A DNA stretch of 28,446 bases from the IMG/VR virus record IMGVR_UViG_2622736468_000007. The stretch is one strand, 5' to 3'. Below are positions 1 through 10,402 of the stretch, in pieces (positions within the stretch are counted from its first letter, which is position 1; each line of letters opens with the position of its first letter). Made by a program: the position numbers and the translations under genes. This DNA is from a virus. Lineage: Duplodnaviria; Heunggongvirae; Uroviricota; Caudoviricetes. Under the pieces are notes generated by a model, which saw only the letters and a list, made by a program, of their open reading frames with translations, did no database searches and had not been told where the DNA came from.

Positions 1-234
1 ATGAAATCAAAAGACACCCTAAAGTGGTTCCCTGCGCAGCTTCCTGAAGTCAGAATTATCCTGGGAGATGCTGTCGTGGAAGTAGCAAAACAGGGAAGAC
101 CTATCAATACCAGAACATTGCTTGATTACATTGAAGGAAACATAAAGAAAAAGTCATGGCTGGATAACAAAGAATTATTACAAACAGCGATATCAGTTCT
201 TAAAGACAACCAAAATTTAAATGGTAAAGTGTAA
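1..234 (+). CDS. ydfK: small prophage protein, YdfK/YnaE-like (77 aa)
   Basis: ATG at position 1, 77 aa, immediately upstream of a Pin-type invertase as ydfK/ynaE are in Qin/Rac-type prophages; identity recalled from memory, not searched. Confidence 0.5.
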   Translation: MKSKDTLKWFPAQLPEVRIILGDAVVEVAKQGRPINTRTLLDYIEGNIKKKSWLDNKELLQTAISVLKDNQNLNGKV

Positions 235-613
235 TACCCCCCCTGAAAAATAATTTTTCAATGCATTAAAGAAATATCAACAACTACGTTATTCCGCAAC
301 AACCTACTTTTTTTACCATTTTTCCACTTTAACAACATTTTGCTCCACTTTTCCACGACCAAACAACTTAAAATCTGGTTGAAATAACATACAACACTAT
401 TATTCGTCTTCCTCGAGTCCGCCCGGAGTTCGAAAAACAAACCGAGTTAAAGCCATTTTTCAAAAAATCGATTTTTGGTTACACCAAAATTACGGGACTG
501 CATCCGAATTCGTTTATTTTCGAACGTATACATACAAATATGTACAATAATAAGCGAAATAATTTTTGGATATGCATTATGATATGTACACCAATTTCGT
601 ATAGAGTCTCACT

Positions 614-1204
614 ATGTCTCGAATTTTTGCTTACTGTCGGATATCAACGCTGGATCAGACCACCGAAAATCAACGCCGGGAAATCGAAAGTGCAGGTTTT
701 AAAATCAAACCTCAGCAAATAATCGAAGAACACATTAGCGGCTCAGCAGCAACCAGTGAGCGTCCTGGTTTTAACCGGTTGCTTGCTCGCCTGAAATGTG
801 GTGATCAATTGATTGTGACAAAACTGGATCGCCTTGGTTGTAATGCAATGGATATCAGGAAAACAGTGGAACAACTGACCGAAACAGGTATCAGAGTGCA
901 TTGCTTAGCATTGGGGGGCATTGACCTGACCAGTCCAACAGGGAAAATGATGATGCAAGTAATTTCAGCAGTCGCTGAATTTGAACGAGACCTTTTACTT
1001 GAACGCACTCATTCCGGGATAGTAAGAGCCCGGGGCGCAGGGAAACGTTTTGGTCGACCACCTGTGTTAAATGAAGAACAGAAACAGGTGGTATTCGAAC
1101 GAATTAAGTCAGGTGTAAGTATAAGTGCCATTGCCCGGGAATTCAAAACCTCGCGGCAAACCATTTTAAGAGCCAAAGCAAAACTTCAGACACCTGACAT
1201 ATAA
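614..1204 (+). CDS. pin: serine-recombinase DNA invertase (Pin/Gin/Hin family)
   Basis: 196 aa; N-terminal catalytic region (YCRISTLDQ...), C-terminal HTH ([15 protein letters not shown]); typical size and position next to tail-fibre genes. Confidence 0.9.
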
Positions 1205-1301
1205 AAAATAATCTTGGTGTGAGATGCTTTACGTCTTCCAAGCCCCCTTCCTTGCCGTAAATGGAAAGATACATCTAATTATAGAATTTATATGTTTTAC
1301 C

Positions 1302-1877
1302 CTACGGCAGTGCTGGCCATTCAATATCCTGTGAAGTTGACGTATCAACACGGTTCAGCAATACCCGATACTTTTTCCATGCTTCCAGCAACGAGATTTC
1401 TTCCTCCGTTGCAATTTCCAGATCTGCAGCATCCTGAAGCGGCGCAATATGCTCACTGGCTACCTGCATCAGGTTGTTTTTTGTTTCTTCCGCCTCCCGG
1501 ATCCGGAACAGTTTTTCTGCTTCCGTATCCTTCACCCAGGCTGTGCCGTTCCACTTCTGAAACTCCCCTTCCGGCGATAACCAGGTAACATTTTCCGGTA
1601 ACGGACCGAGTTCAGAAATAAATAACGCGTCGCCGGAAGCCACGTCATAAACCGTTTTACCCCGATGATCTTCAACGAGATGCCACGATGACTCATCACT
1701 GTTGAAAACAGCCACGAAGCCTGCCGGAATATCTGGCGGTGCAATATCGGTACTGTTTGCTGGCAGACCTGTATGAGGCGGAATATATGCATCACCTTCA
1801 CCAATAAATTCATTAGTTCCGGCCAGCAGATTATAAATTTTTATGGTCCGTGGTTGTTCACTCATTCTGAATGCCAT
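1302..1877 (-). CDS. tfa: tail fibre assembly protein (Tfa)
   Basis: 191 aa; lambdoid Tfa-like sequence; its ATG overlaps the stop of the upstream stf remnant (TAATG). Confidence 0.85.
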
Positions 1878-1879
1878 TA

Positions 1880-2132
1880 TGCAAGCCTCACAATATAGTT
1901 AAATGCGATGTTTTTGACGGTGTTTTCCGCGTTACCAGCAGCGTTAACGGTGATGGTGTGTCCATGTGAACCAATCGCAACGGAGTGCGTATGTCATCCC
2001 TTTCAGGTGAATGATATTTCCATACGCTGTTGGATATCCGTTGTTATACACCTCGTATAACTCAAGACCTGTTGCCCCCTGCGTATTGTCTGTCAGCGCG
2101 GTTAACCGGGGCAAATGATGAGTATCGTCCTG
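1880..2132 (-). pseudogene. side tail fibre (stf) 3' remnant with internal deletion and stop
   Basis: Minus-strand translation gives tail-fibre C-terminal peptides (...[22 protein letters not shown]... and ...[28 protein letters not shown]) separated by an in-frame stop; no 5' portion present. Confidence 0.55.
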
Positions 2133-2975: not shown

Positions 2976-3200
2976 TCAGGGTGTCGATGAGTCCGGAAAG
3001 TGCCGGTACCCGGGATGCCCCCGTCGTCGTGTAATCAGAGCCGCAAGGCGGCGCTCCCACTCCTGCCGTCCCTGCCGGATCTCAGATAAGTTTTCCATGG
3101 TCATCTGCTGACCATTAAAGGTGACGGATTTTCCGTCCAGCACCGCCATTTCAGCTTCCGTATAACGCTGAATCATGGCTTCGATATCATTCTGGTTCAT
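2976..3200 (-). CDS. gpW-like head-tail joining protein (small, directly after terminase)
   Basis: 74-76 aa ORF whose ATG overlaps the terminase stop (ATGA) with GGAGG just upstream; position and size match lambda W; C-terminal RRRG motif. Confidence 0.45.
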   Translation of the reverse strand: MNQNDIEAMIQRYTEAEMAVLDGKSVTFNGQQMTMENLSEIRQGRQEWERRLAALITRRRGHPGYRHFPDSSTP

Positions 3201-5298
3201 AACCATCCTCCGGAAGTCAGCCAGGGGTTAACATCGTCAGTTACTGTTTTCTTCCGTTTTTGTTTTTTAACAGGCGTGGATACCGGTTCCGGTGTGGGTG
3301 ACGGTTCGGTACTGTCCGGGACACACTCCAGCCAGGTTTCCCGGCTCGCCCACTCCGGTGCATCCGGCCAGCGGATCTTTTCGTATCCATGCAGAATGAC
3401 CAGAGCCTCGGCATACACCATCAGGTCAAAAGCTTCGTTGGCACCGCGACCCGGCTTACTCCATTTCCCGTCACTGCTCCGCTCTTCATACGTCAGTTCG
3501 TCGTAAAACCAGCTCCCCAGCCAGTCAGGGAAATGCACATAGCCGGGACCTGGCGAGTCACGCCATAACGCGTTATTCACCCGGTCTTTCAGGGCATCCG
3601 TCTGAAGAAGCCAGAGCGGTACATCACCTGCGGCCTGCGCCCGTCGGCCCGTTCGTCCGGTGTTATCAGGGAATGTACGGGTGATCAGTTTTGCGCGCCG
3701 GATGCTGTCGCCCTTAAACAGGTAAATACGTTTACCAAGGCCATCACGACGGCAACGACGCCAGAATTTATAGGCATTATCAGTGACTCCGTCTTCACCG
3801 CCGGAGTCCACCGCCATTGCCATCAGTCGCATTTGTTGAGAAGGATCGGAGGCCAGCGGCCAGCTTTTATGAAAAACATCCGTCAGCAGGACATCCCAGT
3901 CTTCCGGATAGCTGGCCGGATCAATTCGCTGGCTCTCCCCGTCGCTGTCACCGCGCAATGACTGCGTGATGTTGTAACGATCAATAATCCAGCGTTCGCC
4001 ACGGCTGCCATAGCCCGTTACCTGAACCACAAAACGGCGATGACGTCCCGCCTGCACATCAACTGTCGCCACCAGGAAATTAACGCCATCCGGCACACTG
4101 CGGGAAGGAACTGGCTCTGCCCGCTGCTCAAGCAGTTCACTTTTTCGTTGCTCCATGCTGGCACGGGGAAGATAAGGTAATCCCCAGTCGGTATTGATAA
4201 CCGTCTTGAGTGTTTCTTCACTTCCGGTTGTCTCGTATTCCTGTTCTGCAGCAAGCAGTTTGTAAACGAGTTGCGAGAGTGTCTGGTAAGCAGCTGCCGG
4301 ACCCTCCATCCAGAATGACGCAATACGTGAGCGTCGGGGATCACCATAACGACTGCCATCCGCATTGATGGATTCACCATCCCGCAACCAGACCCCACGT
4401 CCGTTCAGCTCACGTTTTTGTTCAGGCATAATCCGTCCTGAACAGGAAGGACACTGAATATAAGCCGCCTCACTTGCCAGCACGGGATCGGCAATATCAC
4501 GGAAACCAGCAACCACATCGCCGCAGGGCTGAAAATACTCACCACAGTGTGGACAGGGCCAGTACCAGCGACGGCGATCGCCACGGTTATAGAGCGACAG
4601 TATCCCCGTGGTTGGTGGAGCCTCATGCGGTGAAGTCCGTCGCCATTTCACATCCTTCACATCCCTGCCGGGGAACTCTCCACCAGCGTCATACCACTGG
4701 ACATAAATGTGGTGGTACGTTTTGAGGCAAGAGAGAAGGCATCCTCCTCGCCATCAATATCTTCCGGAAAACGGTCATAATCCGTCAGCGCCACGCATTT
4801 ATAATCTGATGAGGACATGATATTGACTGACGGCCAGCCGATTTTCAGGTAGTTGCCAGCAAGGAATGTTCTGTCATAAACGTTGTTGTCATTTTTGTTC
4901 GGACTCAGGCGACTGACCACTTCCGGGCTGACGCGAAACGTTCTGGCAAGTCGTTTTTTGGAGTGTTCGCGGGCTTTTTCCTCCGTCATCTGAATGATCA
5001 GCATATCAGCAGGATCGCAAATCACGTTGTAAATCACCCAGCCGTCAATCAGGCCGATAGTCTTGCCAGTTCGTGCCGGGCCAACAAATATCACTGCGTC
5101 GTATTCACGCGAGGCCAGGCAGTTCATCGGCTCAATAACATACGGTGCCACCAGCGGATCCCACGGGACTGAGTTCCCGGCCCCCATGGGCACCCGCATA
5201 TACTGAGCAACGGCATCAGCAACCCGCATTCGTCTCGGTGCGCGAAGGATATAACCTGAATCGGTTCGTGCTGCCTTTGCGGTTTCCTGATTCAGCAT
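3197..5298 (-). pseudogene. terminase large subunit (GpA family) split into two frames (4657..5298 N-terminal ATPase part; 3197..4660 C-terminal part)
   Basis: N-terminal ORF carries Walker A (VIFVGPARTGKT); C-terminal ORF carries CPHCGEYF zinc-finger-like motif and nuclease region; frames change near 4657-4662, where the second ORF only has a GTG start overlapping the first ORF's TGA. Confidence 0.75.
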
Positions 5299-5300
5299 TA

Positions 5301-5468
5301 CTCCTCCTGCTGTAATTCCTCCTCATCATCCGCACCTGCTTCGGTCACCCGCAGGGCTATCTGATCGCGCAGATCATCAATAATGGACTGAACACGGCTC
5401 ACAGCGGCAGGCTGCAGGCCGCAGTCACGTTCCAGAATATCCGGTAATGTCTCCAGCACCTGCACGAC
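5301..5468 (-). pseudogene. terminase small subunit (Nu1-like), C-terminal part separated by IS insertion
   Basis: 56 in-frame codons ending ...DDEEELQQEE* with TAA overlapping the large-terminase ATG (TAATG); in frame with the N-terminal part across the IS629 insertion. Confidence 0.6.
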
Positions 5469-5510
5469 TGAACCGCCCCGGGTTTCCTGGAGAGTGTTTT
5501 ATCTGTGAAC

Positions 5511-6401
5511 TCAGGCTGCCGGATCATCGTTTCCGATGGAAGCATAATAAGCTTTTTCTGCTTCTGCCGGAGGAGTATGGCCCAGCCTTTCCAGCAATCG
5601 TCGATTGTTATACCAGTCCACCCACGTGAGTGTGGCCAGCTCCACTTCTGTCCGGTTTTTCCAGCTCTTACGGTGTATTACCTCCGCTTTGTAAAGACCA
5701 TTGATGCTCTCCGCCATCGCGTTGTCATACGAGTCGCCTGTACTTCCTGTTGATGCCAGTAATCCGGCTTCCTTAAGCCGCTGTGTGTAGGCCAGCGATA
5801 CATACTGAGAACCTTTATCACTGTGATGGACCGTGCCGGACGGTCGACGGGCCCATAACGCCTGCTCCAGTGCATCCAGCACGAATGTCGTTTCCATGGA
5901 CGATGAGACCCGCCACCCCACGATGTATCCGGCAAACACATCAATGATGAACGCCACATAGACGAAGCCCTGCCATGTGCTGACGTAAGTAAAATCAGCC
6001 ACCCACAGCTGGTCAGGTCGTTCTGCCACGAACTGACGGTTTACGCGGTCGCCTGCGGCAACGGCTTTCCGGCTGATGGTCGTACGGACCTTTTTACCCC
6101 GGAGAACACCGGCAAGTCCCATAACCGCCATGAGACGTGCCACAGTGCATCTGGCCACTCTGATACCTTCCCGTAACAACTGACGCCAGACTTTACGCAC
6201 ACCGTATACCTTGTGATTTTCATCGTATACGCGCTGTATCTCTTTCTTCAGCCAGTCATCGCGCTGCGCACGGGCACTGCGTTTATCCGGATGATGTCGC
6301 TGTTGCTGACAGTGGTAATACGTTGACGGGGCAATATGCAGTTCGCTGCATAGCGGTCCGACCCCGTACTGCTCACGCAGCTTATCCAGCAGTGGCATCA
6401 T
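5511..6401 (-). CDS. IS3-family transposase OrfB (DDE catalytic domain)
   Basis: 296 aa; typical IS3-family integrase-core sequence. Confidence 0.9.
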
Positions 6402-6724
6402 TTTTTCCAGAGGCGGTCGAACTCCGCCTTCGCAAAATAAGCGGAAGCCTGGCGAAGGATATCGTTACTGCGGCGCAGTTCACGATTTTCACGCTCCAGC
6501 TCTTTCAGACGCTGACGTTCAGCGGTGGTGAGCCCTCCATCACCGCCCCCGGTATCCCGCTCATGCTGGCGAACCCAGACACGCAGAGTCTCCGGCGTAC
6601 AGCCAATCTTTGGAGCAATGGAACAAATTGTCGCCCATTGTGAGTCATATTCGCTCTGACTTTCCAGAACCATACGGACTGCCCGTTGACGGACTTCGGG
6701 GGAAAAACGAGTATTTTTAGTCAT
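6398..6724 (-). CDS. IS3-family transposase OrfA (HTH, leucine zipper)
   Basis: 108 aa [19 protein letters not shown]...; overlaps orfB start as expected for frameshift-fused OrfAB. Confidence 0.9.
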
Positions 6725-6778
6725 CCTGTTTACCTCTTTCTCAGGAAGTTTAGTCTCCAGGATTCCCGGGGCGGTTCA

Positions 6779-7103
6779 CGACCGCTTTTGCCCAGATGGC
6801 AAACTCCCGTCTGACATCACTGGCCGGAATGAGTTGTGCCGTTTCCTGTTCGAACTTAAGACGCTCACGTTCAGACTGATACCAGGCTTTGCGTTCATGT
6901 GGATCCATTTCGCCCTCAGCAACCGGCGGTGGTAACCCCATAAATTCAGTCAGAATATCGGTCAACCGGTATAGCTTGAGTTTGTCATGTCCACCAGCGG
7001 GACGAATGTTTTTCAGTCTTGCCACGACAGTCTGGCGGTGCAGACCAGATAAAGCCGCCAGTTGATTAATATTCAGCACCAGGTTTTTCAACTCATGATC
7101 CAT
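6779..7103 (-). pseudogene. terminase small subunit (Nu1-like), N-terminal part interrupted by IS629-like element
   Basis: ORF 6750..7103 MDHELKNLVLNINQLAALSGLHRQTVVARLKNIRPAGG... (winged-HTH like Nu1); the last 8-9 codons are read-through into the IS end. Confidence 0.7.
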
Positions 7104-7264
7104 ATTTCCTCCGGAGAGCTTTAAACATGCATCGTGCGAACAACTTTAAGAAAACGCGTTCGATGTCGAACAAAAAACACTCAATTCGACATACAAAAAA
7201 CAAACAACCATTAATAATCAATAAGATGCAAAGATGATGGTGGCCGATAAAAATGCAAAAACTA

Positions 7265-7295
7265 GCCTTTTTCCGCGACGCTCCCGCCCCGTGGC
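7265..7295. other. candidate cos (cosN-like) site upstream of small terminase gene
   Basis: Minus-strand GGGGCGGGAGCGTCGCGG resembles remembered lambda cosN GGGCGGCGACCTCGCGG; lies ~170-190 bp upstream of the nu1-like start, as in lambda. Confidence 0.4.
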
Positions 7296-7470
7296 AGGGC
7301 CCCCCACAGGGAGGACCCGACAGCCTGACAACCGTGACGAGCATCTGAAACAGAGCTTTACATAATGGCATGGGGATAATTCAGAAGGACATCACAGCAT
7401 GCCCACACAAATTAGTGTGAGTGTCCTGTTTCTTACTACGCGCAGGACTGACGAGCATGAGGGGAAAATA

Positions 7471-8052
7471 GTAAGCGTACAGCCTGAACCGTCTGGTCAG
7501 AATCTGACGAATTAGACAAAGTGGTGTCCACCAAATAAGCAGTGGGAACCAAAGTATCAGATATGCAGAAAAATGTGACTCCCGGCAGGCGAAAAGGCTG
7601 CCCTAATTATCCTCCCGAATTTAAACAGCAGCTCGTTGCTGCCTCCTGTGAACCCGGGATATCCATCTCAAAACTTGCTCTTGAAAATGGCATTAACGCC
7701 AATCTGTTGTTCAAATGGCGACAACAATGGCGCGAGGGAAAGCTGCTATTACCTTCTTCAGAGAGCCCCCAGCTACTTCCTGTGACTCTCGATGCAGCTG
7801 CCGAACAGCCAGAATCGCTCGCAGAGGACCCGGAAACCCTCAGTATCAGCTGTGAGGTAACGTTCCGGCACGGGACGCTCCGCTTCAATGGCAATGTCAG
7901 CGAAAAGCTCCTGACTCTGCTGATACAGGAACTGAAGCGATGATCCCGTTACCTTCCGGGACCAAAATTTGGCTGGTTGCCGGTATCACCGATATGAGAA
8001 ATGGCTTCAACGGCCTGGCTGCGAAAGTACAAACGGCGCTGAAAGACGATCC
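7471..8052 (+). repeat. 582-bp inverted duplicate of the orfA-proximal end of the IS66-family element (partner 9913..10494)
   Basis: Sequence 7471-8052 is the reverse complement of 9913-10494 (orfA proteins identical except one residue, E/K). Confidence 0.85.
7563..7943 (+). CDS. IS66-family OrfA (TnpA accessory protein), partial-copy duplicate
   Basis: ORF 7542..7943 (GTG) with likely ATG at 7563; MQKNVTPGRRKGCPNYPPEFKQQL... Confidence 0.8.
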   Translation: MQKNVTPGRRKGCPNYPPEFKQQLVAASCEPGISISKLALENGINANLLFKWRQQWREGKLLLPSSESPQLLPVTLDAAAEQPESLAEDPETLSISCEVTFRHGTLRFNGNVSEKLLTLLIQELKR

Positions 8053-8056
8053 GTAA
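7940..8056 (+). pseudogene. IS66-family tnpB truncated after codon 38 at the junction with the inverted complete copy
   Basis: [38 protein letters not shown] ; the stop is supplied by the GTAAGCG terminal repeat of the adjacent copy. Confidence 0.8.
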
Positions 8057-8089
8057 GCGTGCAGCAAGAACCGTATTGACGGGGATGTG

Positions 8090-9628
8090 TTATTCAGTCG
8101 GCAGTGCTACGCGCCAGGGGAGCAGTTCGCCGACCCGGTTTATCGGCCAGTCGGCTATGACGTCAAGGACATAGCGGAGGTAGCTTTCTGGCTCCACTCC
8201 GTTCAGTTTGCACGTCCCGATCAGGCTGTACAGCAGCGCTCCCCGCTCTCCTCCATGATCCGAACCGAAGAACAGGTAGTTTTTGCGGCCCAGACTGACC
8301 ATCCGCAACGCATTTTCAGCGATGTTATTGTCCGCCTCAGCCCAGCCATCATCTGCATAGTACGTCAGCGCCGGCCACTGGTTCAGGGCGTATGCGAACG
8401 CTTTCGCCAGTTCTGAGTGTCGCGACAGGGTTTTCATCTTTTCACGCAGCCAGCTTTCCAGGGATTTCAGCAGCGGTTTCGTTTTCAACTGACGTTCGGC
8501 AAGGCGCTGTTCCGCCGTCATTCCCCTTATCTCTGCCTCGATGGCGTACAGTTCGCCGATCCGTTTCAGCGCTTCCTCCGTCAGGGCTGACGGGGTGCGA
8601 ACGTGCACATCGTGGATTTTACGGCGGGCGTGAGCCCAACAGGCGGCTTCCGTTATCCGGCCATCCCGGTACAGCTCGTTGAACCCGGCGTATGCATCCG
8701 CCTGCAGTACACCACTGAACCCCGCAAGATGGGTCTGCGGATGGATGCCTTTTCTGTCCGGGCTGTAAGCGAACCACACCGCCGGCGCCAGCGTTGACCC
8801 GGCGTTACGGTCGTCACGAACATACGCCCACAACCGCCCGGTCTTCGTTTTCTTATTGCCTGGCAACAGCACCGGGACAGGCGTGTCATCAACATGGAGC
8901 TTACCGTCAGTCAGCACATAGCCATGAAGCGCCTCTTCCAGCGGAGACAGCAGCCGGCAGCATGCATCCACCCAGCCCGACAGCAGTGAACGGCTCAGCT
9001 CCACACCTTGCCGGCCGTATATTTCTGACTGGCGATACAGCGGGGTGTGCTCTGCATACTTCGAGGTCAGCACGCGGGCCAGCAGCCCCGGTCCGGCGAT
9101 ACCCCGCTCGATGGGCCGCGAAGGTGCAGGTGCCTGCACGATGGCATCGCACTGAGTACAGGCATGTTTTTCCCGTACCGTCCGGATAACCCGGAAGGCG
9201 CTACGCATCAACTCCAGCTGTTCGGCGGTATCCTCGCCCAGATAACTCAGTGAACCGCCGCAGTTCGGGCAGCACGGCGCCGCAGGCAACAGTCGCTTTT
9301 CGTCACGGGGTAGTGATTCAGGGAACGGCTTACGGGTGCGGGTCTGACGCAACGGACGCTGTACTGCCGGGTCATACACCCTACCAGTCAGCGTATCGCT
9401 CTCTTTCTGAAGCCGGTTCAGATCGGCTTCCATTTGTGCGATACGGCGGGAGACTTTTTCGGAACGACTGCCGAAGTTCATCCGGCGGAGTTTATCCAGC
9501 TGCGCCTGCAGATGGTCTATTTCGCGCTCCCGGTTGCTCAGCTTTTCCTGCAGGGCGTGGATCAGCGCTTCCTGTTCGGCCAGGCGCTGTTTCAGCAGGA
9601 AGATGTCGTCAGAAGAGATGTCGTTCAT
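8090..9628 (-). CDS. IS66-family transposase (TnpC, DDE)
   Basis: 512 aa; leucine-zipper N-terminus, CxxC zinc motif, DDE core typical of IS66 transposases. Confidence 0.9.
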
Positions 9629-9677
9629 AAGCCCGTATTTTACCGGGCTTATTCTGTGACAACCAGGATAAAGAGAT

Positions 9678-10025
9678 TTACAGCATGGTCAGGGAGGTCA
9701 GCAGCCGCTTAGGCTGTCGCCAGTCGATACCTTCCAGCAGCATCGCCAGCTGCGCCTGTGTAAGGAACACTTTGCCATCACGGGCTGACGGCCAGGCGAA
9801 GCGCCCACGCTCCAGCCGTTTGGTCAGGAGGCACAGTCCGTCACCGGTGGACCACAGCAGTTTAACCTGACTGCCGCTGCGGCCCCGGAAAATGAAAACA
9901 TGGCCGGACATGGGATCGTCTTTCAGCGCCGTCTGTACTTTCGCAGCCAGGCCGTTGAAGCCATTTCTCATATCGGTGATACCGGCAACCAGCCAAATTT
10001 TGGTCCCGGAAGGTAACGGGATCAT
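9678..10025 (-). CDS. IS66-family TnpB
   Basis: 115 aa [31 protein letters not shown]...; ATGA overlap with orfA. Confidence 0.9.
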
Positions 10026-10402
10026 CGCTTCAGTTCCTGTATCAGCAGAGTCAGGAGCTTTTCGCTGACATTGCCATTGAAGCGGAGCGTCCCGTGCCGG
10101 AACGTTACCTCACAGCTGATACTGAGGGTTTTCGGGTCCTCTGCGAGCGATTCTGGCTGTTCGGCAGCTGCATCGAGAGTCACAGGAAGTAGCTGGGGGC
10201 TCTCTGAAGAAGGTAATAGCAGCTTTCCCTCGCGCCATTGTTGTCGCCATTTGAACAACAGATTGGCGTTAATGCCATTTTCAAGAGCAAGTTTTGAGAT
10301 GGATATCCCGGGTTCACAGGAGGCAGCAACGAGCTGCTGTTTAAATTCGGGAGGATAATTAGGGCAGCCTTTTCGCCTGCCGGGAGTCACATTTTTCTGC
10401 AT
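10022..10402 (-). CDS. IS66-family OrfA (TnpA)
   Basis: ORF 10022..10423 (GTG start); likely ATG start 21 nt in. Confidence 0.85.
   Translation of the reverse strand: MQKNVTPGRRKGCPNYPPEFKQQLVAASCEPGISISKLALENGINANLLFKWRQQWREGKLLLPSSESPQLLPVTLDAAAEQPESLAEDPKTLSISCEVTFRHGTLRFNGNVSEKLLTLLIQELKR

Follow-up and report, generated by a model that had tools for sequence, protein, structure and literature searches.

How did the small-terminase gene of this prophage come to lie in two pieces, and what does its disruption mean for the phage? In the stretch of viral DNA analysed here (28,446 nucleotides, IMG/VR record IMGVR_UViG_2622736468_000007, Caudoviricetes; hereafter the window), the gene, which we call terS, is read on the minus strand and is interrupted by an insertion sequence whose transposase genes run in the same direction as the terminase genes. 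The answer that we favour, with a probability of about 0.93, is that IS629 transposed once into the terS gene (DUF1441/PHROG 141) of a lambdoid prophage carrying a packaging module of the mEp460/Gifsy-2 type. As such it is an ordinary IS insertion, of an already known kind. The element and its borders are as follows.

5465–5468: left copy of the target-site duplication, CGAC (from the sequence and by script; empty-site alleles have a single CGAC).
5469–6778, minus strand (transposase genes; same direction as the terminase genes): complete 1310-bp copy of IS629, IS3 family (sequence reading and script).
5469–5493: IRR, the terminal inverted repeat on the orfB-distal side; 23 of its 25 positions are complementary to IRL, with TG...CA termini.
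6754–6778: IRL, the terminal inverted repeat on the orfA-proximal side, located by script.
6779–6782: right copy of the target-site duplication, CGAC (from the sequence and by script).

The element begins with TGAACCGCCCCGGG and ends with CCCGGGGCGGTTCA, its imperfect 25-bp inverted repeats matching at 23 of 25 positions. An initial annotation of the window had described a 1310-bp IS629-like element between identical CGAC repeats, and its interval, 5465–6782, corresponds to the IS together with both copies of CGAC. Re-inspection by script places CGAC immediately outside both ends, and the name is also correct: over the full 1310 bp, the copy is 99.4% identical to elements of LC567824.1 which their depositors annotated as 'insertion sequence:IS3 family IS629'. 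Every defining feature of IS629 that could be tested is present, namely the length, an identity of at least 95% to elements of that name, the TG...CA ends, the orfA/orfB arrangement with its frameshift signals and the 4-bp duplication.

IS629, with its isoforms IS1203 and IS3411, occurs in E. coli O157:H7 and O145:H28, in other STEC and in Shigella. A copy on plasmid pMRE600-1 is 99.9% identical to the one described here and differs from it at one position only (5521); across the plasmids of MRE600 the identity is 99.8–99.9%. Copies from O145:H28 are 99.2% identical, and those of O157, listed in RefSeq as 'IS1203 family', are 95.9% identical, in keeping with the description of IS1203 as an IS629 isoform that differs by about 4% (PMC3271280). 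The element has been placed in the IS3 family (PMC9943667), and target duplications of 3–4 bp have been reported for it (PMC3271280). Known IS629 copies share the 1310-bp length, the TG...CA repeats, orfA and orfB with a -1 frameshift, the ALIL pseudoknot, the rve DDE domain and the 3–4-bp duplication, and the present element does not differ from them in structure; the IS1203 subtype of O157 stands about 4% apart. A preference for prophage DNA is likewise common to the known copies and to this one, 62% of the O157 copies lying in prophages (PMC3271280).

Within the element we located two genes and two signals for their joint translation.

6398–6724, minus strand: orfA, 108 aa, HTH_Tnp_1 (ORF list and Pfam).
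5511–6401, minus strand: orfB, 296 aa, HTH_21 and rve (DDE integrase core; Pfam), overlapping orfA.
6401–6406, minus strand: A6 slippery run (TGG AAA AAA TGA), the predicted point of a -1 frameshift joining OrfA and OrfB.
6327–6443, minus strand: ALIL pseudoknot, the IS3-family frameshift stimulator (Rfam RF01497).

Members of the IS3 family produce their DDE transposase, OrfAB, by -1 frameshifting and move by a copy-out/paste-in process. In the present copy, a -1 shift at the A6 run yields a predicted OrfAB of 404 aa. The ALIL match covers the full length of the RF01497 model at 120.2 bits and E=3.6e-32, the gathering score being 50, and orfB matches the NCBIfam model NF033516, IS3 family transposase, with 314.9 bits (cut-off 160). 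Moreover, near-identical copies of the IS carry the RefSeq annotation 'programmed frameshift', and the exact OrfA protein is found on at least 1000 contigs in public collections. Since its open reading frames, its ends and its frameshift signals are all intact, this copy is, as judged from its sequence, probably still mobile.

On either side of the element lie the two parts of terS, followed by the gene for the large terminase (terL).

6750–7103, minus strand: N-terminal fragment of the small terminase (DUF1441), an ORF of 117 aa whose stop lies inside the IS.
5298–5468, minus strand: C-terminal fragment of the small terminase, 171 nt comprising the stop and the 56 codons before it, 100% identical to positions 1–171 of the S88 gene.
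3197–5298, minus strand: gpA-type large-terminase gene, terL (Pfam GpA_ATPase and GpA_nuclease), immediately downstream of terS.

The 117-aa ORF consists of 108 native residues followed by nine encoded by the IS (NRPGNPGD plus a shared V), and its last native codon, codon 108, is made of one base of the target duplication and two bases of the IS. Exactly the same product is found in GCA_901482365.1, in GCA_039853995.1 and in SRR8885722.

When the insertion was excised in silico, the reading frame was kept only by removing the IS plus 4 bp; removal of the IS alone, or of the IS with 3 or 5 bp, broke it. The restored ORF reads ...AIWAKAVVQVLETLPDILERD...DDEEELQQEE* and its stop overlaps the ATG of terL in the sequence TAATG (5296–5300). 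The in-frame rejoining upon removal of the IS and one repeat, and the overlap between the stop and the start of the large terminase, had both been anticipated in the initial annotation and hold; its figure of about 165 aa for the reconstituted protein has to be corrected to 163 aa.

A 4-bp repeat on both flanks would be expected by chance in about 1 case in 256, and the decisive result is the match of the excised sequence. These 801 nt are 100% identical, without a gap, to the uninterrupted loci of E. coli S88, APEC O1, O145:H28 RM12761 and many others. An empty site therefore exists, with a single CGAC, and the duplication is of 4 bp. The region is present in 1361 of 5426 complete E. coli genomes, 542 of which match the excised sequence at 99% or more. 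Among phages, four records are 99.5–99.8% identical to it and the mEp460 group about 91%. The check that had been proposed, alignment of the excised sequence with uninterrupted homologues, thus gave a clear outcome: the restored ORF aligns with them at 100% at the DNA level, and its protein is 86% identical to mEp460 gp01, annotated as a small terminase.

Mapped by BLAST onto the intact prophage of S88, the two flanks lie directly side by side and have only the duplicated bases in common, as expected of the simple insertion that had been proposed, free of flanking rearrangement; beyond the gene, the flanks match S88-type prophages for kilobases on both sides. The insertion had also been called recent. 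As both halves of terS are still 100% identical to intact alleles, it is relatively recent, and the word stands in this relative sense only.

The identical junction recurs in GCA_901482365.1, an independent assembly which is 99.988% identical to the window over 17.1 kb, and again at the ends of two further contigs. An assembly artefact was considered and rejected on these grounds, the duplication being intact and the junction being shared by the independent assembly and by the contigs. None of the 5426 complete E. coli genomes from RefSeq has the exact junction, the matches there lying at other positions in the gene, which indicates that the lineage is thinly sampled; the exact 30-mer junction also has zero matches among the GTDB species representatives. 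The independent assembly has a peculiarity of its own. Its 3.5-Mb contig (CABEEG010000004.1, locus L005) carries a protein record, VTQ30329.1, labelled Streptococcus pneumoniae, and its DNA is plainly that of E. coli, with the prophage and chromosomal genes such as prfC and osmY. The record is probably mislabelled or derived from a mixed-up culture.

From what is known of the IS3 family, we infer that OrfAB would have carried IS629 into terS by copy-out/paste-in transposition. The target would have been cut in a staggered manner, 4 bp apart, and the gaps filled in, so that CGAC would be duplicated. The gene is split after codon 108: the upstream piece can still encode the N-terminal, putative HTH part of the protein, with a short IS-encoded tail, and the C-terminal 55 residues, together with the translational coupling to terL through TAATG, are cut off from the upstream start signals. 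Taken alone, the insertion would abolish cos-specific DNA packaging through a presumed loss of terminase. The 4-bp CGAC repeat would also permit the precise loss of IS629. A consensus scan for promoters and terminators over positions 5200–7500 found nothing above shuffle expectation. The insertions stx2::IS629 in FRIK1275 (PMC7430833) and gne::IS629 (PMC3271280) are likewise simple insertional inactivations with short duplications.

What kind of protein was interrupted? The restored product matches Pfam DUF1441 (PF07278) over residues 10–149 with E=4.6e-44 and 150 bits (cut-off 35.1), and its only other Pfam match is a sub-threshold HTH_30. It also matches PHROG 141, 'terminase small subunit', over residues 1–163 (2.7e-77). 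Like lambda Nu1, it is encoded next to cos, directly upstream of a gpA-type large-terminase gene which it overlaps, and the two are of similar size (163 aa here, 181 aa for Nu1). Indeed, the records of the mEp460/Ayreon phages, as linear sequences, end about 25 nt upstream of where terS starts, a cos-adjacent position. The difference lies in the family, the protein being, like its counterparts in mEp460 and Gifsy-2, a member of DUF1441/PHROG 141. The Pfam search with the restored protein returned no match to Phage_Nu1 (PF07471), BLASTP against lambda Nu1 (from NC_001416) gave no alignment at E<=100, and the PDB sequence search with the restored protein matched no Nu1 structure, only noise at E ~1. 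Profile comparisons gave weak reciprocal matches, of the restored protein to PHROG 57 (8.3e-9), which is the best-matching family of lambda Nu1, and of lambda Nu1 to PHROG 141 (5.6e-8). A single-sequence AlphaFold2 model reached a mean pLDDT of 52, too poor for a comparison of folds. The earlier description of the protein as 'Nu1-like' can thus be kept as a loose analogy, in view of the position of the gene and of PHROG cross-matches near 1e-8, but not as a statement of family membership, given the absence of Pfam and BLASTP matches. By its position, its annotation and its weak profile similarity to Nu1, the DUF1441 protein is a putative small terminase, and any kinship with lambda Nu1 would be remote.

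Three PHROG families of 'unknown function' (5710, 6039 and 21782) match only parts of this small terminase, and the 55 positions of PHROG 6039 correspond exactly to residues 109–163, the fragment downstream of the insertion site. These three families may owe their existence to split genes.

The large-terminase gene is itself interrupted in the window, where a 1-nt deletion in a G5 run (about 4670–4674) splits it into ORFs of 213 aa and 487 aa. The deletion is relative to both the independent assembly and S88, in which terL is intact and encodes 700 aa. Over the 17.1 kb shared with the independent assembly, only two differences were found, both of them losses of a single G in G runs (4670–4674 and about 12068). 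As such losses are typical of homopolymer errors in assembly, the split of terL may be an error of this kind and not a real frameshift.

The prophage has other lesions as well. Relative to S88, about 5 kb of head genes are missing, including the portal, the ClpP protease-capsid fusion and the head-tail connectors; the junction of this deletion lies at about 3002–3008, between the tail-tube gene and the small gene that follows terL. On the far side of the tail-tube gene, the tail module (window 1–2102) has given way to a gene for tail-fibre assembly and one for a Pin-type invertase. Two further insertion sequences or composites are also present.

614–1204: Pin-type invertase.
1302–1877: tail-fibre assembly gene.
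7471–10494: IS66-family composite of 3024 bp, flanked by the 8-bp duplication GGAAAATA.
14292–15059: complete IS1, 768 bp, with the 9-bp target duplication CTCATCCCC, in DNA of the prophage lysis region.

The IS66-family composite is made of a complete 2442-bp element, with tnpA, tnpB and tnpC on the minus strand, and of 582 bp from its own tnpA-proximal end, repeated in inverted orientation and joined to the far end, so that both outer ends of the composite are of the same kind.

Insertions of the IS629 family into terS are not confined to this prophage. We compared the loci L001, L002, L003, L006, L011 and L012 with the window, numbering the sites as plus-strand coordinates of the 492-bp terS gene (equivalent to window 5298–5789).

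Position 159, target duplication CCAG: one IS1203-type insertion, in O157:H7 ECP19-198.
Position 171, target duplication CGAC: the IS629 subtype in this window; an IS end of the IS1203 subtype in a contig of an O157-type prophage (L006).
Position 204: the IS629 subtype in twenty O145:H28 genomes, with the right flank rearranged.
Position 204, target duplication GAC: the IS1203 subtype in five O157 genomes.
Position 295, 3-bp target duplication: IS1203-type, in the opposite orientation, in O157:H7 F8492.
In terL, 225 nt into the gene: a further IS subtype, in strain CEC96047.

The two copies found at position 204 differ from each other at 54 positions, from nucleotide 15 to nucleotide 1297. At position 171, the IS end of L006 reads GGAAAT, as in the IS1203 subtype, versus GGGAAT in the window.

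This recurrence bears on how the allele reached the present prophage. Packaging genes are near-identical among lambdoid prophages, and a terS::IS629 allele already present in another prophage could for this reason have been brought in from there, through homologous recombination or gene conversion. Indeed, terS is 99.3–100% identical across different prophage backgrounds, and the same insertion point recurs in the O157-type prophage L006, whose upstream DNA is only 78–89% identical to the window; a third context (L007) has it as well. It is the IS1203-type element of L006, inserted at exactly this base, that keeps recombination in play as the route of the allele. The IS end in L006 is, however, of the IS1203 subtype and not that of the window, and the 54 differences between the position-204 copies mean that a transfer would also need replacement of nearly the whole IS; furthermore, the flanks of the window are of S88 type on both sides for kilobases. 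We consider such an import unlikely. That hosts which inactivate packaging survive induction, and that the repeated disruption of terS therefore reflects an adaptive immobilisation of prophages, is less probable still: the insertions of the IS629 family seen in different lineages, at least six of them in terS and one in terL and apparently independent, together with the many truncated DUF1441 products in public assemblies, would agree with it, but selection gives no reason for insertions to fall on identical nucleotides or in one orientation, when three of the four sites are in one orientation and two have been struck by two subtypes, the prophage has no portal or capsid genes anyway, so that the loss of terS would add nothing unless it came earlier, and loss of terminase does not stop lysis.

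Among the truncated DUF1441 products, a 121-aa form ending in ...VVQVLVPSGADENY is present on about 100 contigs, and its tail is not derived from IS629.

A single IS629 transposition into terS thus remains the reading that we retain for the window, and the distribution of the other insertions raises a separate question, that of target choice. IS629 has been described as having no known target specificity or preference (PMC3271280). Under random insertion, an exact coincidence of different subtypes at two sites is very unlikely. Positions 159–295 of terS, approximately, could represent a genuine hot spot for insertion of the IS629 family, precise to the nucleotide, a proposal for which we see about even chances; alternatively, the alleles would be identical by descent and the whole element would later have been exchanged between IS subtypes by gene conversion. 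Targeting of the IS911 type, through resemblance to the IS ends, was tried as an explanation and rejected, the best local alignment scoring 9, a value reached by 45% of shuffles. The gne gene offers a parallel, as it too has been struck repeatedly at different sites (PMC3271280). The case of terS differs in that the target is a small terminase and in that, at two positions, different IS subtypes in different lineages occupy exactly the same base, which is unreported for gne. The recurrent insertions in terS are a modest lead, not a result. As the earlier survey found no target preference for IS629 (PMC3271280), the hot spot, if true, would be the first defined preferred target of the element.

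In conclusion, the insertion of IS629 into terS marks a stage in the decay of a cryptic prophage rather than a means of regulation. Since the prophage bears several other lesions, this insertion is not what decides its viability. The occupied and empty states of the terS site provide a clean marker allele for strain typing, as in IS-printing. If the hot spot is confirmed, terS would moreover offer a defined DNA target on which the choice of site by the transposases of the IS3 family can be studied.
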